Origin: Cyanobacteria bacterium P01_A01_bin.123
GTDB taxonomy: Bacteria; Cyanobacteriota; Cyanobacteriia; Phormidesmidales; Phormidesmidaceae
Direction: 5' to 3'
Length of the DNA: 17,765 nt
NCBI GenBank assembly: GCA_039815185.1
Contig: JBCBZT010000092.1
Location: 1-17,765 of the forward strand
The notes beneath the pieces are model-generated. The model was not told the origin of the DNA and made no database searches. It worked only from the letters and a program-made list of their open reading frames with translations. Shown here piece after piece: positions 1,146-17,128 of this stretch (position 1 is its first letter; every line of letters starts with the position of its first letter). Made by a program: the position numbers and the translations under genes.

Positions 1146-1169
1146 GAGGCTAAGATAATCAGTCTTACC

Positions 1170-1197
1170 TTGACGTGTACCAAATAGAGTATAGTCT
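1170..1197 (+). promoter_or_regulatory. Putative sigma70 promoter of the resolvase, overlapping res
   Basis: TTGACG (1170-1175), 16 nt, TAGTCT (1192-1197). Overlap with res matches Tn3-type autoregulation. Confidence 0.4.
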
Positions 1198-1208
1198 AAT
1201 TGGCACAC
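1175..1208. promoter_or_regulatory. res site I-like palindrome (resolvase binding/crossover site)
   Basis: GTGTACCAAATAGAG-TATA-GTCTAATTGGCACAC is an imperfect inverted repeat around a central TATA, between divergent tnpA and resolvase. Related half-sites AATGGCACA (1217-1225) and TAATTGGTACA (1260-1270). Confidence 0.7.
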
Positions 1209-1262
1209 TAAAATGGAATGGCACAGCAGGGGTTTCAGCCCTCTATTCTCAGCAAGGTTTAA

Positions 1263-2501
1263 TTGGTACAAAAAACGGTTGCTATTTATTGTCGAGTTTC
1301 GACAACAGACCAATCTTGTGAACGTCAGGCGCAAGACTTGTTGTTCTATGCCCAAAAAGCTGATTTCAACGTTGTTGGTGTTTGGAAGGAGACCGCTTCA
1401 GGCACTAAGCAAAATCGGGTTGAGCGACAAAAGGTGATGGAGCTGGCGCAGGCTCGAAAGATTGACGCCATCCTGGTAACGGAAATGACCCGGTGGGGGC
1501 GCAGCACCTTAGATCTGATTCAAACGCTACAGGAATTGCAGAGCTGGGATGTTTCTTTGATTGCACAAACTGGGCTTCAGTTCGATTTGACCACGCCTCA
1601 AGGACGACTGATTGCCCAGTTGATGGCAGCACTAGCTGAGTTTGAGCGCGATTTAGTCAGTGAGCGGGTGCGCTCTGGACTAGCTGCTGCCAAGGCCAGG
1701 GGCAAGGTGCTGGGCAGGCAACCTGGCCAACGTCCGAAGTCTGACCGACTTGAGCCACAGGTGATACAGATGGTGGAAGATAAGGTTCCCTATCGCACGA
1801 TTGCCCATGACTTGAGACTTAGTAAAACGACCGTAACTGAAATCGTCAAACGCCACCGGCAAGCGCATCCTGATTTTCAATCCCCAAACTCTAAAATGGC
1901 TACTCGCAAGAAGACTCAGTCCATCTACCAGTTCAAGATTACGCTCAGAGATATCCGGCCACCCATTTGGCGGCGGGTGCAGGTGCGTAGTGATGCCACA
2001 CTAGGGCATTTGCATTGGGTCATTCAGTTTGCGATGGGGTGGACCAACTCCCACCTACACTCATTTTCAATTCAGGGGGTGGACTATTCTATGGCTATGC
2101 CCGACTTGGGCCTTGATGACTTGGACATGCTCAATGAGCAGCCAGTCAAGTTAAGCAAGGTCGTTACCGGGGAGAAGTTTAAGTTTTTCTATCTCTATGA
2201 CTTCGGCGATTCCTGGGAGCATGAAGTCATAGTCGAAAAGGTACTTACTGCTGAGAAAGATACTCACTATCCTGTCTGTATTAAGGCTAAAAGGGCCTGC
2301 CCACCTGAAGATTGTGGGGGAACTTGGGGGTATCAGGAGCTGCTAGAAGCGATTAAAGATCCTGAGCATCCTGAACATGCCTTGAGGCTCGAATGGTTAG
2401 GCACGTCCTTCGACCCAGAGGAGGCTGACCTCGATGAGATCAATGATCTGCTCAAGACAATTCCTCATGATACGGCTAAATTTAACGGCTACATCCCTTG
2501 A
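1263..2501 (+). CDS. tnpR: Serine recombinase (resolvase) fused in frame to a pRiA4b ORF-3-like domain
   Basis: TTG start. AIYCRVST (catalytic Ser), TRWGRS, AEFERDLVSERVRSGLAAAKARG..LGR and a C-terminal HTH. From Met at 1896: YQFKITLRDIRPPIWRRVQV, LHWVIQFAMGWTNSHLHSF, YLYDFGDSWEHEV, RACPPEDCGGTWGY, typical of the pRiA4b ORF-3 family. Confidence 0.9.
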   Translation: MVQKTVAIYCRVSTTDQSCERQAQDLLFYAQKADFNVVGVWKETASGTKQNRVERQKVMELAQARKIDAILVTEMTRWGRSTLDLIQTLQELQSWDVSLIAQTGLQFDLTTPQGRLIAQLMAALAEFERDLVSERVRSGLAAAKARGKVLGRQPGQRPKSDRLEPQVIQMVEDKVPYRTIAHDLRLSKTTVTEIVKRHRQAHPDFQSPNSKMATRKKTQSIYQFKITLRDIRPPIWRRVQVRSDATLGHLHWVIQFAMGWTNSHLHSFSIQGVDYSMAMPDLGLDDLDMLNEQPVKLSKVVTGEKFKFFYLYDFGDSWEHEVIVEKVLTAEKDTHYPVCIKAKRACPPEDCGGTWGYQELLEAIKDPEHPEHALRLEWLGTSFDPEEADLDEINDLLKTIPHDTAKFNGYIP

Positions 2502-2518
2502 CATGAAAGGGATACAGC

Positions 2519-2556
2519 CTTAGCGTAGTTTTCTGTTCCATTACTACTCAAACCCC
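2519..2556 (-). repeat. 38-bp Tn3-family terminal inverted repeat
   Basis: Reverse complement is GGGGTTTGAGTAGTAATGGAACAGAAAACTACGCTAAG: exactly 38 nt, terminal GGGG, internal GAAAA and ACGCTAAG. Confidence 0.92.
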
Positions 2557-3153
2557 ATCGCTCAAGACTCGCCGCTAGCCGCCCCTGAAATCAATGGGTT
2601 TCTTGACTGGCTTCGACATCCCGACGATGGCACCCCGCCCCGAGGGCCTCGTCCGGGTGAAGGCAGTTTTTGTGTCGTCAACTATGCTTCGGGAGCAGAG
2701 AATATGGTTTGGAGCGATCGCCCCACGTTCATCATCCAGGGTAGTCCCCGCAGTTTGGCACTGTATCAGGACATCGACCAGGAGCCCATTTGGGAACATC
2801 CGGTCAATGATGCTGAGGTGGTGGTCTACACTGGCCCACCGCTGGAGCCCGATACCGTATACACCTTCCGGGCACGACACCCGCGCTTTGAGTCCAGCAT
2901 TTTCGAGCAGCGGGAACTGCGGACGATGAGCTTTGACGAGGAGATACAGACCACAGCCAACCTAATATCGCTGGAAGGAGAAATGCGTAATGGTGAGTCC
3001 GTAACAGAATCTGACATCGCGATCGCCAAGGCTGACTATTTTTGGCGATTTGGGTTAGAGGCTGAGGCGTGGGCCGCCACTTGGCCGTTGCAAAAGGGGT
3101 CTCCAGAAGTGACTGAAGCGATCGCCACTAGCGTTGAACATTTGTGTAAATAG
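2557..3153 (+). pseudogene. 5'-truncated DUF928-like protein interrupted by the Tn3 element
   Basis: The frame of ORF 2704-3153 is open back to the IR (IAQDSPLAAPEINGFLDWLRHPDDGTPPRGPRPGEGSFCVVNYASGAENMVWSDRPTF...). Further upstream there is no ATG before a TAG at 2521 inside the IR. RG..C..SDRPTF, YTGPPLEP..Y and A..FW..GL..EA resemble DUF928 proteins, which often neighbour CHAT genes. Three HIP1 sites. Confidence 0.6.
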
Positions 3154-3228
3154 ACCTGATGTCGAAACGTGCCTTGATCGAATAAAAAAACCCAATCGAC
3201 CTTTATGAAGATGAATCCTTTGTGAAGG

Positions 3229-3256
3229 TGAATAAGCTGGCAACCTTCAGAGATAG
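3229..3256 (+). promoter_or_regulatory. Shared bipartite upstream motif, copy 1
   Basis: TGAATAAG-ctggcaacctt-CAGAGATAG, 30 nt before ATG 3287. Confidence 0.65.
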
Positions 3257-3286
3257 GCTGCTAAGTAGTGGACTGAGAGAAGAAAA

Positions 3287-6200
3287 ATGGTGCTGAACAA
3301 GAAACTGACCGGTAGCTTGATGTCATTAGTGTTGGCGATTAGCAGCCCCTCTGGAATTCCTAATGAAACAGCCTCAGCATCACCTCATCAGCTTGCCCAA
3401 GTGGCACCCACCTCTGTCACAGATCGCCTTGACAGCAATAGTCAGGTACTTCATGACGGCAGCTACTACAACATCCATACCTTTGAAGGGCAAGCTGGAG
3501 AAGTCATCAATATCGAGCTGGTTAGTGAAGAGTTTGACACTTATCTAATTCTCTTAGGACCGGATGAACAGCTTGTAGCGGAAGATGATGACGGCAATGG
3601 TGGTACGAATTCTCAGATTGTAGTGACGTTGCCCACTACAGGGATTTATCAGATTCTTGCTAACGCATATGGTGTTGGAGAAATCGGGCAGTACACCCTT
3701 ACCCAGAATTTTGCCTCTGATGATAATGGCACTAGTAATCTTGCAAGGCTCACTCAAATCACTCCAAACTCAATCACTGGGCAACTAGATGAAAATAGTG
3801 AAACCTCAGAAGGTGGACAATACTTTGATCTTCATTACTACGAGGGAACCGCAGGAGAAACTATCACCTTTGAACTAGACAGTGAGGATTTCGATGCTTA
3901 CTTACTTTTGCTAGGACCATCAGGCGAGGTTATTTCTGAAGACAATAACGGTGGAGAGACTACCAATGCAAGACTTACATTTGAACTGACAGCTACTGAT
4001 ACTTACACACTTGTTGCGAGTACTTACTCTTTTCACGAGAAAGGCGAATACACGTTAGCATGGCGTCAAGGCTCAGAAGTTGAACGTTCTTTAGGTAGAG
4101 CAGATTTTCTAAGAAATCAAGCCTTTGATTTGGGTAGCCAAGGCCAATTTATTGAAGCTGAGTTTCTATACCGAGAAGCCTTAAGTATTCGAGAGTTACA
4201 TTTGAGTGCACGACATCCCGATGTCGCACAAATTCTTGATGAATTGGCACTATTGAATAGATCTCAGAATAAGTATGAGGAAGCCGTAGATCTTTATTTG
4301 AGATCACTGTCGATATTGCAGGCATATCGGGAAAATATTAAAGCTTCTTTCCCAGGGTCTGAAGATAGCTATGCCCCCATATCATTTTCTGGGGATTATC
4401 TTAACAGTGAGCGCGATCTCTCTAGAAGCCTACTACGTAACATCGAGCTACGTATAGGATATATCCTTTCAGATTTATCAGATATACACTTGATCCGAGG
4501 AGACTTTGAAGAGTCAGAGAACTATCGTCTAGCGTGTATTGAAATGTTTCCTGTGGTTTGCGGATATTCTTTGTCTGTCATAGAACCACTCATTGAAGCA
4601 ATTGAATTAAGCATGAGGGCGGAGGAATACGATAAAGCTATGTCCTTTTTGGAGAACATTGTAACTATAGAGGATGACGAGATAATTACGTTAGATTTTT
4701 TCCTCGCCTCTGATCTCGAAAAGATGCTTCATGTGGAAATCCTTAAGGAAACTAGTGATATTGCTGTTTCTTTGAGTTTAGAATCAAACGGTTCTCAATA
4801 CCCAAGATCAGCTAATCTTGCCATCTACACCATACTTAAACGTAAAGGTTTACTGCTAGAGACACAAATGAATGTTCAGCAAGAAATAACCTCGTTTATC
4901 CGCCAGGGAAGTCAGCCTACATCAGAAGAGGAAGTCTTGTTAAATCAACTATTACAGAGCCAGCGCGAATTAGCGAATGCTTACCACAACTCTAGCCTTC
5001 AACAAGATCAAAATAGAATAGCTGAACTAGAAGCTGACATTGACCGGATAGAATCTGAGCTGAGAAATTCTGAAAATATATGCATTTCTTATTTTAATTG
5101 CATACCCGTTGCCTCTGAAGACTATCATTCAGCCCTTGGCCCTGGAGACCCTTCGCCATATCCACGCTATGCAGAAGAATGGAATTTGTTGTTTTACAAC
5201 AACCGTATTGACTCAGGCATTGGTCTCATAACGGAACGAATTCCTAACAAAGGTGCGGTGGTAGAGTACGTTCGATATCAACCCTTTAGTTACACTGAAA
5301 TCGAAAATCGCTTCGGTTCTCCCCGCTATGCTGCTTACATCCTCTTCTCTGATGGCCGCATCGAAGCCATCGACTTGGGTAGTGCCGCCGAGATTGATGC
5401 GACAGTACAGGACTTCCTAGAGCTATTACAAAACCGTAATGCTGACTTTCAGAGGGCGGGAGCAAGACCGACTGTGCGCCAAGCAGATATCGAGCAGATG
5501 ACAGGCGACCTTAAAGCCCTCGTGTTCGACCCGATCGCCCCTTATCTGCAAGACACCGAGCATCTCCTTATCTCCCCCGACGGTCAGCTCAACCTGCTGC
5601 CCTTCGAGGCGATGCAAACCGAGGCGGGGGGTGAGTATCTGGTGCAGCAATACCAAATCAGCTACCTCAACTCTGGGCGTGACTTACTGAAGTTTGATGT
5701 CATTGAGCCCAGTCAAAATCCGGCGGTCATCGTCGCCAACCCCGATTATGAAACGGCTGACGGCACGGTCGTAGCTCAGGGACGCAGCACGAGCGACAAT
5801 CGTCGCTCCACCGAACTCAGCCAGTTGCAAGTCGGCCCCCTCCCCGGCACTGCCGCCGAAGCCGAAGCCCTTCGTCCCCTCCTCCCCAATGCCGAAATCC
5901 ACACCGAGGACGAAGCCACCGAAAACCTGCTCAAATCCGTGCAAGCGCCACGCATTTTGCACATTGCCACCCACGGTTTCTTTCTGTCCAACGTGGAACG
6001 CCCCGATCGCAATGCCCAATTCGGGGCTGGCCTCATCGCTAGCGATAATCCTCTCGGCAGTGCAATTACTCCCGGCGTCGTAACCGAAAATCCCCTCTTG
6101 CGCTCTGGTCTTGCTTTAGCGGGTTTCAACACCCGTAGCAGCGGCAGCGAAGACGGCGTCTTCACCGCGCTCGAAGCGTCGCAGCTCAACCTGTTCGGCA

Positions 6201-6511
6201 CCCAGCTCGTCGTCCTCTCCGCTTGTGACACCGGCCTTGGCGATATCAGCAACGGCGAAGGTGTCTATGGGTTGCGGCGGGCGTTTGCCCTGGCCGGAGC
6301 TGAAACTCAACTGCTCAGCCTCTGGCAAGTCAGCGACTTCGGTACCCAAAGCCTGATGGCCCGCTACTACGAAAACCTCACTGCTGGCATTGGCCGCAGC
6401 GAAGCCCTGCGAGAAGTGCAGCTAGAGATGATCGAGCAGGGCGGGGAGTACAGCCACCCTTACTATTGGGCTGCTTTTGTCTTAACTGGCGACTGGCGGC
6501 CACTGGAGTAA
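3287..6511 (+). CDS. Exported PPC-PPC-TPR-CHAT protease (1074 aa)
   Basis: Sec-like signal MVLNKKLTGSLMSLVLAISS. Two PPC-like beta domains (FEGQAGE...FDTYLILLGP...DDDGNGGTNS and a paralogous repeat, about 3410-3703 and 3767-4060). Kinesin-light-chain-type TPRs (HPDVAQILDELALL). CHAT motifs SPDGQLNLLPFEA, HIATHG (H896), LSACDTG (C980), SLWQVSD, HPYYWAAF. Confidence 0.93.
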   Translation: MVLNKKLTGSLMSLVLAISSPSGIPNETASASPHQLAQVAPTSVTDRLDSNSQVLHDGSYYNIHTFEGQAGEVINIELVSEEFDTYLILLGPDEQLVAEDDDGNGGTNSQIVVTLPTTGIYQILANAYGVGEIGQYTLTQNFASDDNGTSNLARLTQITPNSITGQLDENSETSEGGQYFDLHYYEGTAGETITFELDSEDFDAYLLLLGPSGEVISEDNNGGETTNARLTFELTATDTYTLVASTYSFHEKGEYTLAWRQGSEVERSLGRADFLRNQAFDLGSQGQFIEAEFLYREALSIRELHLSARHPDVAQILDELALLNRSQNKYEEAVDLYLRSLSILQAYRENIKASFPGSEDSYAPISFSGDYLNSERDLSRSLLRNIELRIGYILSDLSDIHLIRGDFEESENYRLACIEMFPVVCGYSLSVIEPLIEAIELSMRAEEYDKAMSFLENIVTIEDDEIITLDFFLASDLEKMLHVEILKETSDIAVSLSLESNGSQYPRSANLAIYTILKRKGLLLETQMNVQQEITSFIRQGSQPTSEEEVLLNQLLQSQRELANAYHNSSLQQDQNRIAELEADIDRIESELRNSENICISYFNCIPVASEDYHSALGPGDPSPYPRYAEEWNLLFYNNRIDSGIGLITERIPNKGAVVEYVRYQPFSYTEIENRFGSPRYAAYILFSDGRIEAIDLGSAAEIDATVQDFLELLQNRNADFQRAGARPTVRQADIEQMTGDLKALVFDPIAPYLQDTEHLLISPDGQLNLLPFEAMQTEAGGEYLVQQYQISYLNSGRDLLKFDVIEPSQNPAVIVANPDYETADGTVVAQGRSTSDNRRSTELSQLQVGPLPGTAAEAEALRPLLPNAEIHTEDEATENLLKSVQAPRILHIATHGFFLSNVERPDRNAQFGAGLIASDNPLGSAITPGVVTENPLLRSGLALAGFNTRSSGSEDGVFTALEASQLNLFGTQLVVLSACDTGLGDISNGEGVYGLRRAFALAGAETQLLSLWQVSDFGTQSLMARYYENLTAGIGRSEALREVQLEMIEQGGEYSHPYYWAAFVLTGDWRPLE

Positions 6512-6772
6512 TACCAACTTAGATTCACGTCGTTATCCACCAATGCCGACTTTTCCCTCTAGGGCCCACAAACTCAAACTTGATACCAGAGCTTAGCCCA
6601 TGTCTGCTAACGGAAACCTGGCATCAAACTCCATTGACGTGTTGCAGCAGAGTTAGGAGTGAGGAATGCGGAGTTTTGAGGTGGCAGTCCCCTTGCATTG
6701 GGCTTTTGGAAACTTGAGCAGTTCAGACGAAACGGCTGCTTGCTGTAATCAGTCAACCCATTGCTTCAGAAG

Positions 6773-6800
6773 TGTATAAGTTGTTCGCCATCAGATAGAT
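6773..6800 (+). promoter_or_regulatory. Shared bipartite upstream motif, copy 2 (degenerate)
   Basis: TGTATAAG-ttgttcgccat-CAGATAGAT, preceded by GAAG, 28 nt before ATG 6829. Confidence 0.5.
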
Positions 6801-6828
6801 GTCTGTGTGAACCAAGATTTACGGTGCC

Positions 6829-7599
6829 ATGATGTCTATCCCCAACGGTTTCATTCCCTCGCTACCGCTGACGATTCCAACGACCCTGGTCAAAACCGAT
6901 CACCCCCCTAGCGATCTATTCGTAATCTTGGCGATCGCTCACAAAGATTTCATTTGGGCTAATCATCATTACCAGCAAGGGCAATTTCCTGAAGCGTTAG
7001 CCAAGTTTGAAGCAGCCCTCAATTACTATACGCAAGCTCAAGAGACCACCGGTATGGGCCAAAGCCTCAATGGTTTGAGTGCGGTGTATTTGTCTCTAGG
7101 ACAACCGGAGCGATCGCTGATTTGCAGCCAAGCCGCCGCCGCCATTTTGGAGGATACTGAAGCGAAGTACGACTATGCGATCGCCCTCTACCAGCTCGGC
7201 CTTAGCCATTTTGAGCTGCAGCATATCGCCCAGGCTGAGCGCAGTTTTGAAAACGCACTCAAGCAGTTTTACCACCTGTCAGCTATTGACTATGAAAACC
7301 GCATCCTGATCGACCTTGGACGCATATATGCTCAGCAGCACAAATTTCTCTTCGCCCTCGCCTGCTACGAGTCCGTTCTGGACAGCTTGATCGTTAACCC
7401 ATTTCTGGAAAATCGCCGCGAGACGCTAAGTGCTGTGGTGCAGGCAGTGGCACAACTTAGCCAGCACGAAAAACTAGGAAAGGGAGCGATCTCGGCGTTT
7501 CAATCCGTGCTCGAAGAGTACAGTCTGGCCGCTTATCATCTACAAGTTGCATCTCACCTGCAACCCTCCCAGCAGCCTTTGCCAATGAGAACGGAATAA
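6829..7599 (+). CDS. Stand-alone tetratricopeptide repeat protein (256 aa)
   Basis: About four 40-aa TPRs (YQQGQFPEALAKFEAAL, LNGLSAVYLSLGQPERSL, LYQLGLSHFELQHIAQAE, LIDLGRIYAQQHKFLFAL). No clear signal peptide or catalytic domain. Confidence 0.85.
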   Translation: MMSIPNGFIPSLPLTIPTTLVKTDHPPSDLFVILAIAHKDFIWANHHYQQGQFPEALAKFEAALNYYTQAQETTGMGQSLNGLSAVYLSLGQPERSLICSQAAAAILEDTEAKYDYAIALYQLGLSHFELQHIAQAERSFENALKQFYHLSAIDYENRILIDLGRIYAQQHKFLFALACYESVLDSLIVNPFLENRRETLSAVVQAVAQLSQHEKLGKGAISAFQSVLEEYSLAAYHLQVASHLQPSQQPLPMRTE

Positions 7600-7645
7600 G
7601 GCGATTGCTTGTCGAAAAGTCTTGAAGCAAAAGATTGCCTGAAAG

Positions 7646-7673
7646 TGAATAAGCTCTCACAGCCCAGAGCTAT
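7646..7673 (+). promoter_or_regulatory. Shared bipartite upstream motif, copy 3
   Basis: TGAATAAG-ctctcacagcc-CAGAGCTAT, 37 nt before ATG 7711. Confidence 0.65.
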
Positions 7674-7710
7674 ATGCTGGTGTCAGCTCCAGAGATGAAG
7701 TTAACCTGCC

Positions 7711-10212
7711 ATGCATCATTTTCATAAGTTGCTCAGCCTAGCCTTCCTTATCCCCTACCTCCCAGGTCTTGCCACCGAGAGCTTAAATTATTCTGTGCTG
7801 TTTGCGACGAATGCTGTAGGTGCTCAGATATCCGACAAAGCTAGTTCCTTAGATTTATCAATGCGAGTTACTCAAGCTCATAGTACTAAAAGTGAAGCAG
7901 ATAGACTATTTTGGCTAGGCTATGAGCATTACAATAACGGTCAATTGACCGATGCTCTGCAAAATTGGCAAAGGGCCAGCTCGTTATACCGTGACATTGG
8001 AGACTTGGCTTCACTCGCTAGCACAATCGGCAATTTGGGCATCCTTTACACCGATCTGCATGACTACGAGCAGGCGATCAAACTTCAGAATGAGCAACTT
8101 GCGATCGCCCGACAAATCAACTCACCAGAGGCCGAAGCAAGTGCGTTATTAAGTCTGGGCATCGTCCAACAGCTGTTAGGCAATTATCGACAGGCCATCA
8201 ATCATTTTCAAGATAGTTTGTCGATCGCTCAAGCGATCGATGACGTCAGCAAAGAATTCCATAGCCTGAATAATTTGGGCGTTGTCTATGTTGCCTTAGG
8301 GCAGTACGAACAGGCATTGACCCTGTATGAGCAAGCCCTAGCGATCTCTCAGAGAACAGGCGACCATAGAGGAATCGGCCAAATGTTCCGTAATTTGGGT
8401 GTTGCCTACAGCGGTTTAGGGCAGGAAGAGCAGTCGATTGAGCTTCATTTAGAGGCACTCGCGATCGCCCGCTCGCGTAACGACGCCAATGGCGAAGGAG
8501 TCAGTCTCGGTAACATGGCAGCAAGCCATGTCAGGCTGGGGCAGTATGATGAGGCGTTAACCCTTTACCAGCAACGACTAATCCTTGCCAGGAGTTCGGC
8601 CGATATTCGGGGTGAGGCGAATAGCTTAGGGGGGTTAGGCGATATTTACCGACAGCAGGGCGACTATCAGCAGGCGATCGCCTTTTATGAACAAGAGTTG
8701 GCCTTAAACCGTGAAGTGGGCGATCTCAATGTTGAAAGTTCGGCTCTGGAAAATTTGGGCATTGCCTACCTAGCTAGCGGGGAACCTGAGCTAGCCATTG
8801 AATCTTTGACAGCGGCGAGTACCGTTACAGAATCCCTGCGTGATTCTAACCTGTCGGACATCGACAAAATTGCCCTCTTTGAAACCCTGATAAGTGGTTA
8901 CGAGTTTTTGCAACGGGCTTACATAGCGCAGCCTAACTATGAGTTAGCCTTCGAAGTAGCTGAACTCAGTAAGGCTCGTGCCCTGGCTGAGTTAGTTATC
9001 CAGAGTGAGAATGCCTCGACGATTGCCATAACCAGCGCCCAATCTCCCGATTTAAGCGCGATTCAAAGCTTGAGTCAGACTGAACGTAAAACGTTAGTCA
9101 CCTATTCGTTAGTGCCTGCAGATGAAGGCTTTGGGGCAGTACTCTATATCTGGTTGGTGTCACCCCAGGGAGAAATCATCTTCCGGCAGCAACCTCTCAC
9201 CGACATCAACCTCAGTGATCTAGTCATTGACACGCGCAATGCGATAGGGGTGCGAGGTACAGATCGCAACGCGCCTGTCCCCACCTACTCACCAGAACAG
9301 CTGGCACAACTCCAAGCCGAGCAAGACGAAAAACTCAGCCAGCTCCATGATTTGCTGATTGACCCGATCGCTGATCTCCTGCCTGACGATCCCAACCAGC
9401 CCGTAGTCTTTATTCCCCAAGACGAACTCTTCCTCGTCCCCTTCCCGGCATTGAAAGACGACAACGGCGACTACCTGATCGAAAACCACACGATTCTGAC
9501 CGCTCCCTCCATTCAGGTGTTGCAGCTCACTCACGACATCGCTGATTCTCGCAATGGCGCAACCACTGACCAGCCCGTTATTGTCGGCAATCCCACCATG
9601 CCCACCGTCACCTTCCTTACCGACGATGGTGAATTCGTCGATACACAACTCACGCCGTTATATGGCGCACTGCAAGAAGCCAATGCCGTCTCCGAGTTCC
9701 TGGGCACCTCAGCCTTAACGGGCGATCAAGCGACTGAATCTACTGTGAAACAACAGCTTGCCAGTGCCGACCTGATCCACCTTGCCACCCACGGCCTGCT
9801 GGAATACGGTGACCCGCGCGAAACCGGAACGCGGGATGTCCCCGGTGCCATTGCTTTGACTCCCGGCAATGGCGAAGACGGCTTGCTCACCGCCGCTGAA
9901 ATTTTGCAAATGGACTTGCAGGCTGATCTCGTGGTGCTCAGTGCCTGCGACACCGGACGCGGACGCATTACCGGAGATGGCGTGATTGGGCTCTCCCGCT
10001 CCTTTATTGCGGCGGGCGTGCCCAGCGTTGTCGTGTCCCTATGGGCCGTACCGGATGCGCCGACGGCTGACTTAATGACTGAGTTCTACCGCCAGCTTGA
10101 TGAGGGGCAGACCAAAGCCCAGGCCTTGCGACAGGCCATGCTTATTACGATGCAAGACCATCCTGATCCTAAAGATTGGGCCGCGTTTACGTTAATTGGT
10201 GAAAGTGAATAA
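7711..10212 (+). CDS. TPR-CHAT protease (833 aa), probable signal peptide
   Basis: Hydrophobic N-terminus, eight 40-aa TPRs, E.SKARAL linker, IPQDELFLVPFPAL, HLATHG (H694), LSACDTG (C746), SLWAVPD, PKDWAAF. Confidence 0.93.
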   Translation: MHHFHKLLSLAFLIPYLPGLATESLNYSVLFATNAVGAQISDKASSLDLSMRVTQAHSTKSEADRLFWLGYEHYNNGQLTDALQNWQRASSLYRDIGDLASLASTIGNLGILYTDLHDYEQAIKLQNEQLAIARQINSPEAEASALLSLGIVQQLLGNYRQAINHFQDSLSIAQAIDDVSKEFHSLNNLGVVYVALGQYEQALTLYEQALAISQRTGDHRGIGQMFRNLGVAYSGLGQEEQSIELHLEALAIARSRNDANGEGVSLGNMAASHVRLGQYDEALTLYQQRLILARSSADIRGEANSLGGLGDIYRQQGDYQQAIAFYEQELALNREVGDLNVESSALENLGIAYLASGEPELAIESLTAASTVTESLRDSNLSDIDKIALFETLISGYEFLQRAYIAQPNYELAFEVAELSKARALAELVIQSENASTIAITSAQSPDLSAIQSLSQTERKTLVTYSLVPADEGFGAVLYIWLVSPQGEIIFRQQPLTDINLSDLVIDTRNAIGVRGTDRNAPVPTYSPEQLAQLQAEQDEKLSQLHDLLIDPIADLLPDDPNQPVVFIPQDELFLVPFPALKDDNGDYLIENHTILTAPSIQVLQLTHDIADSRNGATTDQPVIVGNPTMPTVTFLTDDGEFVDTQLTPLYGALQEANAVSEFLGTSALTGDQATESTVKQQLASADLIHLATHGLLEYGDPRETGTRDVPGAIALTPGNGEDGLLTAAEILQMDLQADLVVLSACDTGRGRITGDGVIGLSRSFIAAGVPSVVVSLWAVPDAPTADLMTEFYRQLDEGQTKAQALRQAMLITMQDHPDPKDWAAFTLIGESE
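7888..8847 (+). repeat. Eight tandem 120-bp (40-aa) TPR-coding repeats
   Basis: Ungapped 40-aa periodicity of L.NLG..Y..LG.Y.QA. Confidence 0.85.
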
Positions 10213-10233
10213 GCTTTGCCCATCAAGAAATAG
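10206..10233 (+). promoter_or_regulatory. Shared bipartite upstream motif, copy 4 (overlaps the stop codon of the preceding gene)
   Basis: TGAATAAG-ctttgcccatc-AAGAAATAG, 58 nt before ATG 10292. TGAAAGTGAATAAGCT at 10200-10215 is identical to 7640-7655. Confidence 0.6.
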
Positions 10234-10291
10234 GTGTTCTTAGAACTGCAATATTCATTTGCTCACGTGGGAAAAAGGAGTCTGATTTACC

Positions 10292-12598
10292 ATGTCTCGT
10301 TTACGTCGTCGTCACTTTTTGCAACTCGCTGGAGCTAGCCTGGGAGCGATCGGTCTCAACCAGTTGGACTTTATGCAGCGGGGCGATCGCATGCATCGTG
10401 CCCTAGCTCAAAACACATCTCGTAAATTAGCCCTCTTGATTGGCATCAACGGCTATATCGAACGCCCTCTGGCGGGGTGTGCCAATGACGTGCGCTTGCA
10501 ATACGAGCTACTCGTGCATCGCTACGGATTTAATCCCCAAGACATTTTGATTGTGACCGACGAGTTATCTGCTAGCGGCTTAGACCTGCCTGCGCGTGAA
10601 ATTATCACGACCCCCACTCGACAGACTATAGTGGATGCATTCCGTGATCATCTTATCGACCAAGCTAAATCCGACGACGTAGCCATTTTTCACTATTCAG
10701 GGCATGGTTCTTACGTTGAAGATCCGCAGCCGCTCGATTATGAAGAATCCGAATACTTACAAATCTCTGGTTACAGCAACTTCCAGGGTTTGGTTGGCAC
10801 CCTCGTGCCGGTTGATACCAAAGAAACCGATAGTGCAGACACCGTCAACGATATTTTAGGCAGCACTATATTTTTGCTCAGCAAATTGGTGCCAACCGAG
10901 AACTTCACCACGATTTTAGATAGCTGTCATGCCGGTGGTGGTGTCCGTGGCAACTTGGTCTACCGCGCGATTGATCGCGAAGCTGGACAAGCTCGCAATC
11001 CTAGTCAGGTCGAGCTTAATTTGCAAGCAGACCTGATGGAAGAACTGCTGTTGAAAGATAGCACTGAATTGAAGGAGCTCCGTGAAGCTGGTATTGCCAG
11101 AGGTGTTGCCATGGGCTCGGCTCGTGCCAATCAGCTGGCTGCTGAAAAGCAACATGCAGGTTTTAAGGCAGGGATTTTCACCTATCTGCTCACGCGCTAT
11201 CTCTGGCAAGTTGGCCAGACAGAGTCGCTGGAAAGCATGTTTGTAGATTTAGCCCGCATCACTCGTGCTGTCGATGAAGGCGATCCTCAAGACCCCGTTT
11301 ATTTCATACAACCCGGAACTACCCTTGACCAGCAGCCCCCTTATCTCATGACTCCTGATCACCCCTTTGCCGATGCGGTGGTGCGAGAAGTCGTTGACGG
11401 GCAAACGGTAGAGCTATGGCTGGGTGGCATGACGCCGAATGCATTGAAGGCCAAAGATTCGATTTATGAAGCGTTGAATGCCAACAGAGACGTTATTGCT
11501 CGTTTGCAGCAACAAGGTCAGCTTAATGGCCTCAAAGTCAAAGCTCAGTGTATTGACGATCAGGGAAATACGATTGATTTGCCACCTGATGTAACAGCAG
11601 GAACTTTATTGCAAGAAGAAATTCGCGGTATTCCGACTGATTTCTCGTTGCAGGTGGGTTTGCATGAGTCGCTGGGAGATGATTTAGAGACGGTTCGCCA
11701 ACAGCTAGACCGAATTGACCGCGTGACTCCGGTGACAATTCCTGACAACCCTGCCGACGTGCTGATTGGCCGCTTTAGTAACAGCATCCAGCCACAGTTA
11801 GAAAATCTCGGCATTCGAAATCGCGCCGATATTGTTGAGTTGGAATCAGGCAGCTTTGGCCTGTTTAAAGAAAATCTCACGCCCCTGACCGATACGTTTG
11901 GCGCTGGATTTGAAAGTGGTGGGGAAGCGATCTTGCGACTATTTCCCCGTTTCAAGCTCTTACTCGCTCAGCAAGCATTGCAAAGCATGGTGAATACTAA
12001 CTCCACCGAGTTGGCCATTGATATGGCAATTGGCACCGTCGAGCGAGGTGGTATAGAAGTAGTGTCCAGTGATCCCTCCCGAAGGGATGCGGCTCCGGTG
12101 ATTCCACAGCTTACCGCTGGCGAAAACTTGTCGCTCAAGGTGACGAATAAGGAATCAACTTCTCTTTACGTCGCAGTGATTGCGACTGAAGATGATGGCG
12201 ATATGTACGTCTACCATCCCAGCGACTGGAATGCGCCGGAGATTCAAGCGGAGCTTGGTCCGGGTGAAAGTGTTGAGATTCCCAAATCAACCGATATCTT
12301 CGATCTACCTTTGAGGGGGCCTTCTGGCTTTTTCAATGTGTTGGTGATTGCCAGCCGCACGCAATTGCGTGATACCTTACGGGTGCTGAAGCGCATTAGC
12401 GAGCGTTCAGCTGATGTTTTTCCAATCTTTGATAGCTCTCGAGAAGCCTCACGCAGTACCGAAGATAGTGTGGGTAATATTTTAGACAGCCTGCTAGGTG
12501 ATGTCAGCCGCAATGCCCCCATTCAGACTCGCCGAGACGCAGCAGTAGACAACAATTCTGTCGTCACGTTCTCTGCCACGATTGAGGTAGTGGAATGA
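10292..12598 (+). CDS. Caspase-like (peptidase C14, orthocaspase/metacaspase) protein with Tat signal and C-terminal DUF4384-like domain (768 aa)
   Basis: MSRLRRRHFLQLAGASLGAIGL twin-arginine signal with ALA-Q cleavage site. RKLALLIGINGY..PLAGCANDV, HYSGHG (H138), DSCHAGG (C212). C-terminal GENLSLKVTN..LYVAVI...G.....P beta domain. RBS AAGGAG at 10275-10280. Confidence 0.92.
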   Translation: MSRLRRRHFLQLAGASLGAIGLNQLDFMQRGDRMHRALAQNTSRKLALLIGINGYIERPLAGCANDVRLQYELLVHRYGFNPQDILIVTDELSASGLDLPAREIITTPTRQTIVDAFRDHLIDQAKSDDVAIFHYSGHGSYVEDPQPLDYEESEYLQISGYSNFQGLVGTLVPVDTKETDSADTVNDILGSTIFLLSKLVPTENFTTILDSCHAGGGVRGNLVYRAIDREAGQARNPSQVELNLQADLMEELLLKDSTELKELREAGIARGVAMGSARANQLAAEKQHAGFKAGIFTYLLTRYLWQVGQTESLESMFVDLARITRAVDEGDPQDPVYFIQPGTTLDQQPPYLMTPDHPFADAVVREVVDGQTVELWLGGMTPNALKAKDSIYEALNANRDVIARLQQQGQLNGLKVKAQCIDDQGNTIDLPPDVTAGTLLQEEIRGIPTDFSLQVGLHESLGDDLETVRQQLDRIDRVTPVTIPDNPADVLIGRFSNSIQPQLENLGIRNRADIVELESGSFGLFKENLTPLTDTFGAGFESGGEAILRLFPRFKLLLAQQALQSMVNTNSTELAIDMAIGTVERGGIEVVSSDPSRRDAAPVIPQLTAGENLSLKVTNKESTSLYVAVIATEDDGDMYVYHPSDWNAPEIQAELGPGESVEIPKSTDIFDLPLRGPSGFFNVLVIASRTQLRDTLRVLKRISERSADVFPIFDSSREASRSTEDSVGNILDSLLGDVSRNAPIQTRRDAAVDNNSVVTFSATIEVVE

Positions 12599-12630
12599 AT
12601 TATTGAACCAATACTGATCTAGCCTCAAAC

Positions 12631-12672
12631 GAGCCCCGCACCAAAATTCTCTCTCAGTGAAAAGCGGGGCTC
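12631..12672. other. GC-rich inverted repeat (9-bp stem, 24-nt loop)
   Basis: GAGCCCCGC (12631-12639) / GCGGGGCTC (12664-12672). No U-tract follows. Confidence 0.55.
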
Positions 12673-12685
12673 AGCTCATAGAAAT
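12658..12685 (+). promoter_or_regulatory. Shared bipartite upstream motif, copy 5 (most degenerate)
   Basis: AG-TGAAAAGC-ggggctcagct-CATAGAAAT: 5/8 and 6/9 matches with the same 11-nt spacer, 33 nt before ATG 12719. Confidence 0.4.
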
Positions 12686-12718
12686 CTACCATTAACTCTT
12701 ATTAAACACTATTAACCC

Positions 12719-15700
12719 ATGCGCCACCCTGCTCGGCTGCTCGGCCTCGCCACCATCACCGCCTTACTCATCACGACCCTACCTACTACACTTTCCGCCT
12801 TACCCATTACCTCTGTACTGGCGCAAGAGGCCAGTCAAATAGGAGATCGGCAAGTCGAAGCTGATCGTCTGATGGGGCAGGGAGCAGAGCAATATAATAT
12901 GAATCAGTTTCAAACGGCCTTGCAATCTTGGGAACAGGCATTGGCAATCTATCAAGAGATTGAAGACCGAGGTGGAGAAGGCGCTGCCTTTGGAAATTTG
13001 GCGCTTGCTTATTATGGTTTGGGTCAGTATGAGAAAGCTATAGGCTTCTTCGAAAAACATCTCGAAATCGCTCGTGAGATCAGTGATCTCCAAGGCGAAG
13101 CCAGCGCATTAAACGGATTAAGTAGAATCCATAAGAACCTCGGTAACTATCAGCAAGCAATAGATTTCTACCAACAACAAATCACCCTTGCTCGAAATAC
13201 GGAAGATCGGCAGGAAGAAGTTAATGCTTTGGGCAACTTAGGTATCGCTTACAACGAGGTTGGGAATTATGAGCGAGCAATCGAATCTTTCGAGCAGTCT
13301 TTAACGATTGCTCGCGATATTGATGATTTTCAAGCTCAAGCTACCGTCTTAGGTGGTCTAGGTGTTGCTCATCGTAAGTTAGAAAACTACCAACAAGCCA
13401 TTGAATTTCATGAGCAAGCTCTTGTTATTGCGCGAGGCAGCAACAATCAAGACGAGGAATTCAGAAATCTAGCAAATTTAGCTCTTGCCTATAATCTTGC
13501 TGGAGAGTATCAGCAAGCCATCACTTTCAACGAACAAGCTCTTTATCTCGCTCGAGAGCTAGGCGACGCTAGCAGCGAGGTAATTGTCCTAGGAAATCTA
13601 GGCATCGTTTACCGCAACTTAGGGCAGTATGAGCAAGCCATTGAACTCTACGAGCAGCAGTTAACCATTGCCCGTGCCAACAACAATCGTCAGGGAGAAA
13701 GAAATGCTTTAGGCAACTTAGGCTTTGTATATTCTCAACTAGAGCAATATCAGCAGGCGATTGATGTCTATCTACAGCAAATTCCAATTTTGCAAGCATT
13801 AGAAGATATCCAAGGAGAAAGCCAAGCTCTGACACGTTTAGGGAATATGCACATTATCTTAGGGCAATATTCTGAAGCTATCGATACTTATAAGAAACTG
13901 CTTGCTAACGCCTATGATAACAGCGACTCTCGTCAGGAAATTACTACTCTAAACAGCCTTGGCGAGGTTTATTCTGAGTTGGGAGACTATCAGCAGTCTT
14001 TAGAAAACTATGAGCAATCTTTAGCCATTGCCGATGATCTCGATAATTCCCTGAGAAGTACGTTTATTAGAGCAGTACCTCTATTCGGTATTGTTCAAGC
14101 TAACCTTGGACTCCAGAACTATCAAGAAGCCATTCTTTTAGCTGAGAGAGCGCTGCCAGTTTTTGATGAAATCTTGTTGTTAGTAGAGAATGACCAAGAT
14201 TTAGTAGGAACGATAATGTCCGAGCAAGACGTTGAGTTCGTTAAACAAGCTAGAGACATTTTGGAAGAATACATCACAATTGCTCAGGAAATTTTTGCTC
14301 AAGCAGACGAAGGAGCTAGCTTGGATGATTGGAATAGTCTTTTCCCTCAATATCAGCAAGCTGCTGAAACCCAATATCAACAAACGATAGACTTTTATCA
14401 ACAGAGATTAGTGACGATTCGTCAGGCAGGAGACCGGGCTCAAGAGGCATCGTTATTAGGCAATTTAGGAAGTACTTATCGCCGACTAGGTCGACTTCAG
14501 CAAGCCATTGATGCCTACGAGCAGCAGTTGGCCATCACTAGCGATATCGAAGATGTTGCTGGACAGGGAGATGCCTTTAGCGGTTTGGGGCGCGTCTTCA
14601 ACGCTCAAGATCAACCGGAGTTAGCGATAGTCTTTCTCAAGTCGTCAGTGCAAGTGCGCGAATCCATCCGCGAAAATATCCAAGGACTCGAAACTAGAAT
14701 TCAGGAAGCTTACACTAACACCATTGCTAATGATTACCGCCTCCTAGCCGATCTACTGCTCGAACAAGGCCGCATTCCCGAAGCGCAGCAGGTGCTTGAC
14801 CTCTTGAAGCTCGAAGAACTGCGTGAGTTTACCAACACCCGTGCGACCTGGACGGGTAGTGAACTTGCTTACACCGCCGCCGAGCAATCCGTCATCGATG
14901 CCCACGGCAGTCTGATCGCTCTCGGTAGCGCCATCCTCACCTGCGAAGATACTAACTGCGCAGAGCTGAACAGCCTTTACGATCAACGCGAAGCCCTCAC
15001 CGCTCAATACAACGATCAGGTCAACCAGTTTGCCAACACCATTCGCGCCAACCGTCGAGATGATGAAGACTTTCAAAATCCACAGGAGCTAAGTGACGAC
15101 GCTAAATCGTTGCTCAGCGCCTACGCTGTCGAGGGGCAAACCCCAGTACTGATTTATCCCTTTGTGCTCGAAGACAAGCTGTGGCTGGTATGGGCGATTG
15201 AGGGTCGGGTGATTGGTAGTGCCGAAGTATCGGTAACCCAGAGCGAACTAGCGACCACCGTGCAGCGCTTTGGCGAATTGCTCACCGCACCCACCCGGTT
15301 AGACGAGCTGCAGGCCCAGGGCCAACAGCTTTACAACTGGATCATTCAGCCTTTAGAAGCTGAGCTGGCCGCTAACAATATTGACCATCTGATTTTCGTC
15401 AACGATCGCGTCACCCGCTACATCCCCATGGCGGCGCTCTACGATGGCGAGCAGTTTCTGGCCGAGCGCTATCAAATTTCCACCGTGCTCACCCCCGGCA
15501 CCACCGATACACGCAGTCGCTTGGCCGATGTCGAGTCCTCCCAGGTACTTGGATTGGGGCTCACCCAAGCCGTCGCCAACTTTAACCCACTGCCTGCGGT
15601 CGCCACCGAACTCGATCGCATCGTCCAGAGTGGCGACGACGACGCGATCGGCATTTATCCAGGCCAGGTTCTACTCAACGAAGCCTTTACGCTAGAGGCT

Positions 15701-16258
15701 TTAAAAGCTAACTTGCGACCTGATTATCAGGTACTGCACCTAGCGACTCATGCCGCCTTTGTGCCTGGTCGAGCGGATGAGTCATTTATTGTGATGGGCA
15801 ACGGCGATCGCCTCACCACCGCCGATATTGAAGACATGAATGCCCGGCTAGATAATTTACACCTAGTGATTCTCTCCGCTTGTCAAACGGCGGTGGGTGG
15901 CCCGGCAGGCGACGGGGCTGAAATTACGGGCATCAGTTCCTACTTTTTAGGCACAGACGATAGTCGCGCCGAAACAGTCATCGCCTCCCTGTGGGCAGTG
16001 AATGACAACAGTACTAGCGTCTTAATGCAGCGTTTTTATACCCTGCTCGCCACTGGCGAACTCACCAAGGCTGAAGCCCTGCGTCAAGCGCAACTCAGCC
16101 TGCTCTATGAAGAAGATGCCGAAACTCGCTTGGCGGCTGCCCGTCGGGGTGCACCCATCCCCACTGCCCGCGAAGGGTTCGATGTGGCTGTGGTCGAGCC
16201 GGGCTATCGACATCCCTACTACTGGGCACCGTTCATTCTGATTGGCAACGGGCTGTAG
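12719..16258 (+). CDS. Exported TPR-CHAT protease (1179 aa)
   Basis: Signal peptide ending VLA-Q. Ten tandem 40-aa TPRs, an insert, two more TPRs, then YRLLADLLLEQGRIPEAQQVLDLLKLEEL, DRVTRYIPMAALYDG, HLATHA (H1011), LSACQT (C1055), SLWAVND, HPYYWAPF. Confidence 0.93.
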   Translation: MRHPARLLGLATITALLITTLPTTLSALPITSVLAQEASQIGDRQVEADRLMGQGAEQYNMNQFQTALQSWEQALAIYQEIEDRGGEGAAFGNLALAYYGLGQYEKAIGFFEKHLEIAREISDLQGEASALNGLSRIHKNLGNYQQAIDFYQQQITLARNTEDRQEEVNALGNLGIAYNEVGNYERAIESFEQSLTIARDIDDFQAQATVLGGLGVAHRKLENYQQAIEFHEQALVIARGSNNQDEEFRNLANLALAYNLAGEYQQAITFNEQALYLARELGDASSEVIVLGNLGIVYRNLGQYEQAIELYEQQLTIARANNNRQGERNALGNLGFVYSQLEQYQQAIDVYLQQIPILQALEDIQGESQALTRLGNMHIILGQYSEAIDTYKKLLANAYDNSDSRQEITTLNSLGEVYSELGDYQQSLENYEQSLAIADDLDNSLRSTFIRAVPLFGIVQANLGLQNYQEAILLAERALPVFDEILLLVENDQDLVGTIMSEQDVEFVKQARDILEEYITIAQEIFAQADEGASLDDWNSLFPQYQQAAETQYQQTIDFYQQRLVTIRQAGDRAQEASLLGNLGSTYRRLGRLQQAIDAYEQQLAITSDIEDVAGQGDAFSGLGRVFNAQDQPELAIVFLKSSVQVRESIRENIQGLETRIQEAYTNTIANDYRLLADLLLEQGRIPEAQQVLDLLKLEELREFTNTRATWTGSELAYTAAEQSVIDAHGSLIALGSAILTCEDTNCAELNSLYDQREALTAQYNDQVNQFANTIRANRRDDEDFQNPQELSDDAKSLLSAYAVEGQTPVLIYPFVLEDKLWLVWAIEGRVIGSAEVSVTQSELATTVQRFGELLTAPTRLDELQAQGQQLYNWIIQPLEAELAANNIDHLIFVNDRVTRYIPMAALYDGEQFLAERYQISTVLTPGTTDTRSRLADVESSQVLGLGLTQAVANFNPLPAVATELDRIVQSGDDDAIGIYPGQVLLNEAFTLEALKANLRPDYQVLHLATHAAFVPGRADESFIVMGNGDRLTTADIEDMNARLDNLHLVILSACQTAVGGPAGDGAEITGISSYFLGTDDSRAETVIASLWAVNDNSTSVLMQRFYTLLATGELTKAEALRQAQLSLLYEEDAETRLAAARRGAPIPTAREGFDVAVVEPGYRHPYYWAPFILIGNGL
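12851..14050 (+). repeat. Ten tandem 120-bp (40-aa) TPR-coding repeats
   Basis: Exact 40-aa periodicity from QVEADRL to DDLDNS. Confidence 0.85.
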
Positions 16259-16267
16259 TGCCAAAAC

Positions 16268-16295
16268 TGAATAAGTCCTCCAGCGGCAGAGATAG
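16268..16295 (+). promoter_or_regulatory. Shared bipartite upstream motif, copy 6
   Basis: TGAATAAG-tcctccagcgg-CAGAGATAG, 41 nt before ATG 16337. Both boxes are identical to copy 1 while the spacer differs. Confidence 0.65.
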
Positions 16296-16335
16296 CTCTT
16301 GACAGAAGCGAATCACTCCCCTGGAGGACTTTTTT
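16273..16335 (+). terminator. 11-bp inverted repeat with T-tract that pairs with the Shine-Dalgarno sequence (terminator or anti-SD structure)
   Basis: AAGTCCTCCAG (16273-16283) / CTGGAGGACTT (16321-16331), running into a T6 tract. The 37-nt loop is long for a classical terminator. Confidence 0.45.
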
Positions 16336-16336
16336 G

Positions 16337-17128
16337 ATGAAATCTACTTCTTTTCTCAGTAATACGCTCACCAGCGTTGGCATTGCCTTGATTTTGCCGT
16401 TGGTTGCGCCTCCCGTTGAGGCCGCTGTAGAAGTCCCTGTTGCCAGCGATCGCCGCTTCCAAGCATTAGAAACTGACATCCTGGTGCAAGCGGGTGACTA
16501 CGATCAACTTGTTCAGGCAGGCTATGATGCCTTTCGGGCGGGCAACTACGAAGAGGCCTTGCAAGCGTTTGAGCAGGCCATTCGCCTTGATGCCAATCAA
16601 GAAGCAGCATGGACGGGTAAAGGCTTGAGCCTTTATTTCACAGAGCGTTATCGCGATTCGATCGCGGCTTTCACCACCGCACTGGAACTCAATGGGGATT
16701 CTTTTCTCGCTTGGCTGTGGATGGCCAATGCTCTGGATGTCACCAATCAGCTGGACTTGGCGCTGCAGGCATATGAGCAAGACACCCAACAAGCCCGCCT
16801 TCGACAACAAGCCCGAGACGATGAGAGCATTCGCGTCGCTGTCGAAGGTAAATTTGGTCAGGCCAAACGACGGTTTGGGCTCGGACGTGTCATGGCTAAA
16901 CTCGCCCAAACCGCTGAAGCCATGATTGCCATTACCTGTTTGGTGATGAACTTGGAGAAACGGCTACGCCGTTTTGTTGTCTGGCTTTGGAGGGTGTTGA
17001 TGTGCTTACTACGTGGTTATCAGGCAGATGTGTGCTCCTTTGCAACTCAGTTAAGCGATGATTGGCGAAAACCTTCGACCATCAGCAAGGCAATACTGAC
17101 CACCTCTGGACTCCCCGATAACCCCTGA
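16337..17128 (+). pseudogene. Chimeric ORF: signal peptide + 34-aa TPRs (to about 16780) fused in frame to an IS5-family transposase C-terminus
   Basis: RBS GGAGG at 16323-16327 favours ATG 16337. TPRs GNYEEALQAFEQAIRLDANQEAAWTGKG. After YEQ the sequence switches to QQARDDESIRVAVEGKFGQAKRRFGLGRVMAKL...IAITCLVMNL. Confidence 0.8.

Follow-up and report, generated by a model that had tools for sequence, protein, structure and literature searches.

We analysed a window of 17,765 nucleotides that makes up the entire contig JBCBZT010000092.1 of Cyanobacteria bacterium P01_A01_bin.123 (host assembly of 8.09 Mb in 133 contigs) and that carries a cluster of four predicted caspase-fold proteases, all encoded on the plus strand in open frames (Table 1). 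Three are TPR-CHAT proteins, combining tetratricopeptide repeats (TPR) with a protease domain of family PF12770, clan CD; the fourth, called C14 here, combines Peptidase_C14 with DUF4384. The Pfam CHAT matches scored 286, 252 and 211 bits (cut-off 24), and those of C14 scored 69 bits for Peptidase_C14 (cut-off 21.4) and 36.8 bits for DUF4384 (cut-off 27). The His-Cys dyad is intact in all four, for which protease activity is predicted, and both dyad residues are kept in 78 of 79 exported-type CHAT homologues. A first-pass annotation, made from the window's letters, had named three CHATs and one C14; profile matches and sequence reading agreed, down to the exact motifs that it quoted. Its division of the CHATs into distinct subtypes was borne out by a quick maximum-likelihood tree (79 exported-type CHAT domains and 6 receptor CHATs; the careful search was left unfinished), where they fall into three separate deep clades. 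With 42 CHAT and 21 C14 matches in the same genome, and CHAT/C14 clusters in five places, the cluster is an ordinary one for its host, and such clusters are not rare. At E<=0.001, proteins related to C14 turned up in 57 of the 61 genomes compared, and its architecture has been tabulated for 23 orthocaspases (PMC8283722).

All four proteases appear to be exported. The C14 N-terminus has a twin-arginine (Tat) motif, RRRHFL, and such a motif occurs in 26 of 26 full-length C14 homologues of the loci fetched below, a partly circular count because the collecting profile was built from sequences bearing the arginine pair. For CHAT1, CHAT2 and CHAT3 the maxima of 12-residue Kyte-Doolittle hydrophobicity were 2.07, 1.90 and 2.48. 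As a heuristic in place of SignalP, we asked for a 12-residue window of at least 1.7 within the first 70 residues. Exported-type CHATs passed in 74 of 79 cases, and the full-length ones of the window's genome in 26 of 27, compared with 41% of all long open reading frames of that genome. Among the neighbouring proteins described below, the figures were 63/67 for partner proteins, 3/62 for receptors, 2/52 for sigma-like proteins and 4/53 for DUF1822 proteins. The export-like signals attributed to the four proteases in the first-pass annotation were thus recovered, as a Tat motif and hydrophobic N-termini. The two co-oriented TPR genes reported with them do both lie on the plus strand; TPR2 keeps 149 of 357 codons, and TPR1 (1.68) lacks a clear signal peptide by the heuristic. 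Orthocaspase surveys list CHASE2 and DUF4384 fusions, and the term 'signal peptide' is absent from their available portions (PMC2853523, PMC8283722); secreted CHAT proteins are mentioned in picocyanobacterial islands (PMC7522525).

Table 1. Features of the 17,765-nt window (positions counted from its first letter; percentages are identities to G014, a genome of another genus of the same family).
Feature	Position	Strand	Evidence
Tn3-family transposase, 5' part; flank outside the system	132-1355	-	NCBIfam NF033527 E 1.1e-73, covering 2-309 of 954 profile positions; Pfam DUF4158
Resolvase fused to pRiA4b ORF-3-like domain; transposon cargo	1263-2501	+	Pfam Resolvase E 1.9e-38, PRiA4_ORF3 E 6.9e-70
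38-bp Tn3-type terminal repeat; insertion point separating cluster from head	2519-2556	.	Read from sequence
DUF928-like/MtxA-like receptor partner, 5'-truncated	2557-3153	+	77% to intact G014 gene
Promoter-like box TGAATAAG-N12-AGAGATA, 58 nt 5' of CHAT1	3229-3255	+
CHAT1: Sec-like signal, PPC domain(s), variable TPR region, CHAT; H896, C980	3287-6511	+	Pfam CHAT E 3.6e-85
Variant box TGTATAAG-N12-AGATAGA 5' of TPR1	6773-6799	+	Matrix score 18.4
TPR1: stand-alone TPR protein	6829-7599	+	Pfam TPR_12 E 3e-17; 74% to G014 orthologue
Promoter-like box, 65 nt 5' of CHAT2	7646-7672	+
CHAT2: Sec-like signal, variable TPR region, CHAT; H694, C746	7711-10212	+	Pfam CHAT E 9.3e-75
Promoter-like box overlapping CHAT2 stop codon, 86 nt 5' of C14	10206-10232	+
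C14: Tat-signal orthocaspase, Peptidase_C14 + DUF4384; H138, C212	10292-12598	+	96% in G014
CHAT3: Sec-like signal, variable TPR region, CHAT; H1011, C1055; lacks a box	12719-16258	+	Pfam CHAT E 3e-62
Promoter-like box, 66 nt 5' of TPR2	16268-16294	+
TPR2: TPR protein of exported type, truncated after codon 149 of 357	16334-16781	+	97% to intact G014 gene over 149 aa
IS5-family transposase 3' fragment, fused in frame to TPR2	16782-16960	+	Pfam DDE_Tnp_1_2 E 1.4e-17; NF033578
ISAzo13 transposase fragment at contig end	17236-17763	-	NF033519 E 6.2e-69

The entire array recurs in the same order in G014, with 79-95% DNA identity where alignable and a C14 protein that is 96% identical. Upstream of it, G014 carries a 'head': a 445-aa sigma-like gene, a DUF1822 gene (Pfam E 3.6e-28) and a gene for an 819-aa membrane protein, the receptor, with Pfam CHAT and CHASE2 domains, the dyad and an EACC2-type N-terminal domain assigned by position (no profile). 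A trypsin-like gene and further TPR-CHATs lie downstream. In our window, the end of a Tn3 element separates the proteases from these receptor genes. In this region of G014 (L041-L043, G014:C11:725000-785000), two divergent heads, each of sigma-like, DUF1822, receptor and partner genes, lie within 30 kb; it also holds about eight TPR-CHATs and a third, short sigma and DUF1822 pair facing a pentapeptide-CHAT gene.

The first gene of the window, here the partner, was used to find further loci. Among 301 genomes of the class, its profile matched in 77 and the sigma-like profile in 102. We fetched 60 of the 112 partner matches (the strong ones, with profile seeds left out) with about 7 kb upstream and 13 kb downstream; several stretches end at contig ends, and the genomes are kin, so that locus counts are not independent. 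The receptor is the next gene upstream of the partner in 56 of the 59 loci having an upstream gene, DUF1822 is present in 47/60, and sigma, DUF1822 and receptor occur together in 45/60. An exported-type CHAT was found in 31 loci and a Tat-C14 in 13; either was found in 38 of 60, compared with 5.7% of 20-kb stretches drawn at random from the window's genome. This context, together with the G014 head, supports the envelope location and signalling role that had been proposed for the cluster.

The same counts bear on the idea, put forward in the first-pass annotation, that the four enzymes form a cascade in the envelope, taken here as a linear one in which a CHAT activates another and then C14 by cleavage, as in SAVED-CHAT/PCaspase. 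Three deep CHAT clades and a C14 do share a single array whose order is kept in G014, most of the C14 homologues listed keep a Gly-Gly-Gly-x-Arg-Gly segment after the catalytic Cys, and a CHAT-to-caspase step has a precedent in Haliangium ochraceum, where SAVED-CHAT activates PCaspase (bioRxiv 2023.06.23.546230). However, only 6 of 60 loci hold both CHAT and C14. The subtypes differ from array to array, and both arrays of one subtype (four genes in L007, two each in L046 and L067) and C14 genes standing alone are common. Separate promoter-like boxes precede three of the four proteases, and independent swapping of TPR halves (below) also suits parallel sensors better. A fixed cascade thus seems improbable to us. 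The Haliangium pair resembles the window in having CHAT and caspase-type proteases side by side, and counts a sigma factor among its substrates; it differs in being cytoplasmic, triggered by cA3 and linked to type III CRISPR. Domain, family and PADLOC scans of the window found no SAVED or other nucleotide-sensing domain and no Cas or CBASS context gene.

A promoter-like box, TGAATAAG-N12-AG(A/C)(A/G)(A/C)TA, lies 58-86 nt 5' of CHAT1, CHAT2, C14 and TPR2; the pattern, derived from these same sites, has 4 matches in the window against 0.20 expected. Counting the TPR1 variant, five window genes have a box of the TGAATAAG-N12-AGA(A/G)ATA type, the type that also precedes sigma genes, and at the position of the variant G014 reads TGAATAAG-N12-AGATAGA. 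An independent matrix was made from 20 sites of other genomes picked on the first half only; their second half came out as AGAAATA, and the window's four sites ranked 1, 2, 4 and 8 of the 181 TGAATAAG sites in the genome. A related pattern gave 25 matches in five genomes (8 at loci already known) against 0 for reversed controls. These precede five sigma-like genes, two Tat-C14 genes, five TPR-CHAT-like starts, TPR2, a trypsin, a subtilase and TpsB; the remainder are three uncharacterised exported-type proteins, two very short frames and four unrelated genes. A control with a spacing of 14 had four matches, two overlapping spacing-12 sites and two being G014 CHAT promoters. Scans for sigma-70 promoters (19 vs 16.8) and terminators (10 vs 16.6) stayed at chance level. 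CHAT3, which has no box, may be transcribed from the C14 promoter; between the two genes (12631-12672) lies a 9-bp inverted repeat with a 24-nt loop, only partly kept in G014. Taken with the gene neighbourhoods, the box suggests to us that the exported proteases and the head behave as a single regulon.

Membership of such a regulon could also mean that the proteases are output only, processing or turning over exoproteins and envelope proteins (two-partner secretion substrates, matrix) without feeding the receptor. Besides CHAT and C14 genes, the genes with a box in front include those of an exported trypsin-like protein, a subtilase and a TpsB; C14 and CHAT genes often adjoin TpsA/TpsB genes, as in L049-L051 and L057, where Tat-C14 genes sit in TpsA/TpsB/CHAT operons that have no CHASE2 head; many receptor loci lack exported proteases; and variable TPRs could track variable TpsA substrates. 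On the other hand, the receptor needs an extracytoplasmic input, the exported partner comes next after it in nearly every locus (the 56/59 above), and a TPR-CHAT directly follows the partner in many loci, as well as in published Fischerella operons (PMC8195603). We regard output alone as unlikely, and as less probable than signalling into the receptor.

The TPR-CHATs combine a constant protease end with a variable N-terminal half. Against their G014 orthologues, CHAT1, CHAT2 and CHAT3 are 90%, 92% and 98% identical over the last 300 residues, compared with 26%, 24% and 50% over the N-terminal part, and the DNA alignment breaks over the TPR parts (3595-5320, 7686-9141 and 12954-14597). The GC content of these parts is 41, 49 and 43%, versus 59, 56 and 55% in the protease ends. 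Such split conservation was not seen for C14 (96%) or TPR2 (97%). Among further CHAT1-clade genes, five of seven had a protease end of 64-83% and a TPR part of 22-26% identity, the other two being alignable over a short stretch only. No close donor for the window's TPR halves was found in its own genome and the fetched loci (best 27-47%). The high variability fits the earlier suggestion that the TPRs are ligand-binding modules. Four tandem TPR-CHATs of one clade in the window's genome (L007, G000:C35:75940-87468) are about 80% alike in the protease end and 54-62% in the N-terminal part. An insertion sequence interrupts the G014 CHAT1 orthologue after about codon 145-168 (L042:9396-11010), and another CHAT1-clade gene of the window's genome stands directly behind CRISPR-associated genes for a Csx3 ring nuclease and a TIGR03985 protein (L003:6200-14712, G000:C82).

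A constant enzyme joined to a variable binding region would also be expected of outward effectors, that is, released or surface-displayed proteases that attack competitors, grazers or phage proteins, or mark kin, with the TPR setting the target. Transfer between genera, as the C14 identity indicates, and the transposon flanks would suit them. Against this, no immunity-like small gene follows each protease, the window has no outer-membrane export gene, and PADLOC yielded generic TPR and caspase models only. We consider this explanation highly improbable.

The partner had been called DUF928-like. The window gene, a 5'-truncated remnant without a signal peptide, has no Pfam match to DUF928 (PF06051), and two of ten relatives match weakly (best E 1.8e-4). 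Compared with an Atlas cluster of which 12% is DUF928, the partner scored 0.88, and at most it is a distant DUF928 relative. Its predicted fold resembles that of MtxA, which likewise neighbours CHASE2: the AlphaFold2 model (pLDDT 91.8) has Ig-like and TPR-like helical parts, and 4z29, the C-terminal domain of MtxA, is its best fold match (Foldseek E 9.9e-6; VIA Z 8.4, root-mean-square deviation 3.9, 145 aligned). The partner has a conserved Arg-x(n)-Cys start, with the Arg before the first Cys kept in 65/68 partners, and a C-terminal Cys. The MtxA gene of Magnetospirillum lies before a CHASE2 receptor gene (PDB 4z29; PMC4439547). The two proteins have in common a two-domain fold, a signal peptide and a neighbouring receptor gene, but their identity is 11-13%, MtxA carries one more domain at its N-terminus, and adenylate cyclase is the output of its receptor. 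A longer partner relative, an exported protein of 394 aa (hhalign probability 85%), is encoded in the C115 cluster of the window's genome (L001, G000:C115:54000-74000), a paralogous array with four TPR-CHATs, a Tat-C14 and a TPR protein that has neither CHASE2 head nor box.

A complex prediction for the G014 CHASE2 domain and partner scored 0.22, the mark being 0.32, and was used neither for nor against binding. CHASE2 and partner identities covary over 61 loci (partial r 0.52 vs 0.34); we rejected this as a sign of binding, since linkage and kinship explain it equally well. In one locus pair (L063 and L082), the sigma, DUF1822 and caspase parts are 89-97% identical (caspase 92%), compared with 51% for CHASE2 and 40% for the partner, and the extracytoplasmic pair looks as if it had been replaced as a unit. 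The receptor dyad is invariant (63/63) and its N-terminal-loop Arg is kept in 62/63. One receptor of the window's genome, with a box upstream and a split TPR-CHAT downstream, is cut after the caspase domain to 378 aa, without CHASE2 (L005:10841-11977, G000:C43).

The head corresponds to a system catalogued computationally by Kaur et al. in 2021 (PMC8195603), in which EACC2-caspase receptors with CHASE2 have extracytoplasmic-function (ECF) sigma factor and DUF1822 neighbours. The G014 head agrees in its DUF1822 gene and in a receptor with EACC2-type N-terminus, caspase, CHASE2 and transmembrane (TM) segments, next to a gene that is tentatively sigma-like; the window itself is without receptor, DUF1822 and sigma genes. 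Three Fischerella operons in the supplement of that paper, already of the receptor, partner and TPR-caspase kind, end in a TM+beta_rich+TPRs gene and a TPRs+CASPASE gene. There, self-cleavage of the receptor is proposed, and the available portions of the paper make no mention of TPR-caspase export, a C14 with a Tat signal, arrays of several proteases, swapped TPRs, a box in promoters or a site at which DUF1822 is cut. The core operon has thus been catalogued already, and what is added here is a variant with an exported arm of several proteases and swapped sensor halves. The statement in the first-pass annotation that such clusters have no described function holds for experiment; in computation, the core had been described in 2021. 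Our searches of the open-access literature turned up no experimental work on EACC2 systems or on arrays of exported TPR-CHATs in cyanobacteria.

Two characterised CHAT systems indicate how the parts might act. In Anabaena PCC 7120, HetF cuts PatU3, which binds HetZ, between R117 and S118 of the sequence Y116-R117-S118-P119 (Xing et al. 2022, PMC9457339). Like the receptor, HetF is a membrane-anchored cytoplasmic CHAT with a periplasmic sensor part, and it cuts a regulator-binding inhibitor after Arg. A similar motif, hydrophobic-Arg-Ser/Thr, is kept in the linker of 38/53 DUF1822 proteins (alignment-based count) versus 7% of random 24-mers. HetF differs in having periplasmic TPRs instead of CHASE2, and no exported CHAT is known in its pathway; the likeness of DUF1822 and the sigma-like protein to PatU3 and HetZ is taken here as one of analogy. 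The second is DdvA of Myxococcus xanthus, a periplasmic TPR-CHAT with a His-Cys dyad that is tied to release of the DdvS sigma factor (PMC11506125, PMC6061681), and which the first-pass annotation left out when it placed the characterised bacterial CHATs in the cytoplasm. PDB chain 8rot (991 aa, DdvA-sized) was the sole CHAT match of the CHAT2 protease domain (E 0.002). DdvA, however, is a single membrane anti-sigma polypeptide that uses RseP, whereas the window's TPR-CHATs are separate signal-peptide proteins in arrays, and the system has a second, cytoplasmic caspase. A DdvA-type chain of cytoplasmic zinc anti-sigma domain, TM segment and periplasmic TPR-CHAT was not found in the window, where short signal-like N-termini are followed by PPC or TPR.

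Beyond gene content, motifs and conservation, we infer the following. The four proteases would form the outward-facing arm of EACC2 caspase-CHASE2/sigma-factor signalling, acting as parallel sensor-proteases in a feedback loop, a reading to which we give a probability of roughly 0.4. Each exported TPR-CHAT would act in parallel, its variable TPR region binding one specific ligand in the envelope, either a foreign protein or an exoprotein of the host, and switching on the constant CHAT. Cleavage after Arg, possibly in the MtxA-like partner, would be passed to the CHASE2 receptor, whose cytoplasmic caspase domain would cut DUF1822 between Arg and Ser/Thr of its linker, as HetF cuts PatU3. The sigma-like factor so freed would transcribe box promoters, namely those of its own gene, the exported proteases and secretion genes, giving positive feedback. 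C14, exported by Tat, would add to this regulon one more effector or amplifier with Arg specificity. We favour parallel sensor-proteases over a fixed cascade because array make-up is variable, boxes are separate and TPR halves are independently replaced. A more specific version seems to us somewhat unlikely: in filamentous cyanobacteria these would be diversifying receptors, immune-like in their variable sensors, whose TPR halves are swapped by recombination onto constant protease ends, and which signal the presence of foreign envelope proteins through the MtxA-like partner and CHASE2 to a second, cytoplasmic caspase that frees a dedicated sigma factor, so that caspases would act on both sides of the membrane.

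Several observations weigh against our main reading. A shared box would make the proteases outputs of the sigma factor, and action upstream of it is not implied. Only part of the family has the box: counting training sites, it precedes 18/79 exported-type CHATs, 10/26 C14 and 18/52 sigma genes, and four of the 25 genome-wide matches precede unrelated genes. Neither profile nor fold scores for the sigma assignment are significant: one of five long copies matched TIGR02937 weakly (E 0.001), sigma-70 factors ranked first for the model, below significance (Foldseek E 0.065; VIA Z 7.8), and a PDB sequence search with the sigma-like alignment gave no match. The DUF1822 motif as defined is missing from 15/53 proteins, and in 22 of 60 partner loci the fetched stretch (limited in some by contig ends) contains neither an exported-type CHAT nor a Tat-C14. 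Export of the window proteases was judged by the hydrophobicity heuristic, and the thylakoid lumen is another destination of cyanobacterial Sec and Tat. Rapid divergence of TPR repeats can come about in the absence of selection, and the close pair L067/L068 is uniform (0.89 in the TPR part, 0.90 in the protease end). Finally, the cognate head genes and the 5' half of the partner gene are absent from the window's assembly, which holds only paralogues (29-60%), with heads on contigs C78 and C113 and a partial receptor on C43; of the remaining sigma genes, that on C78 has a weak box (10.7) and that on C113 has none. The copy in the window's genome would work only if one of these paralogous heads serves it.

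The missing head also raises the possibility that the window holds decaying cargo, a mobile fragment of a redundant family that currently has no function in this genome. Transposons break both ends. The Tn3-family element, in which a serine resolvase and the pRiA4b ORF-3-like domain share one frame (1263-2501), ends at 2556, and the partner gene resumes at 2557 without a start codon or signal peptide; the 38-bp repeat at this junction, which we take to be a Tn3 end, is present in a single copy in the assembly. On the other side, the match of TPR2 to its intact orthologue stops at 16781, where the IS5 fragment begins. Redundancy is suggested by the 42 CHAT matches of the genome. Nevertheless, four long frames, their dyads and five boxes are intact, and decay would concern the window copy, not the conserved system; we think it very improbable.

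Damage at both ends of this copy, and the earlier cataloguing of the core operon, lessen the weight of the finding. It bears, however, on a large set of proteins, since many filamentous cyanobacteria have dozens of exported-type CHATs and several Tat orthocaspases that lack an assigned task. As a lead to what CHASE2 receptors sense, our analysis supplies a candidate receptor partner. It also offers handles, namely the box as a reporter, a named DUF1822 Arg and natural TPR-swapped alleles for finding ligands. Should the relay prove right, bacteria would have a caspase signalling chain reaching across the membrane, and multicellular cyanobacteria a possible means of recognising non-self.

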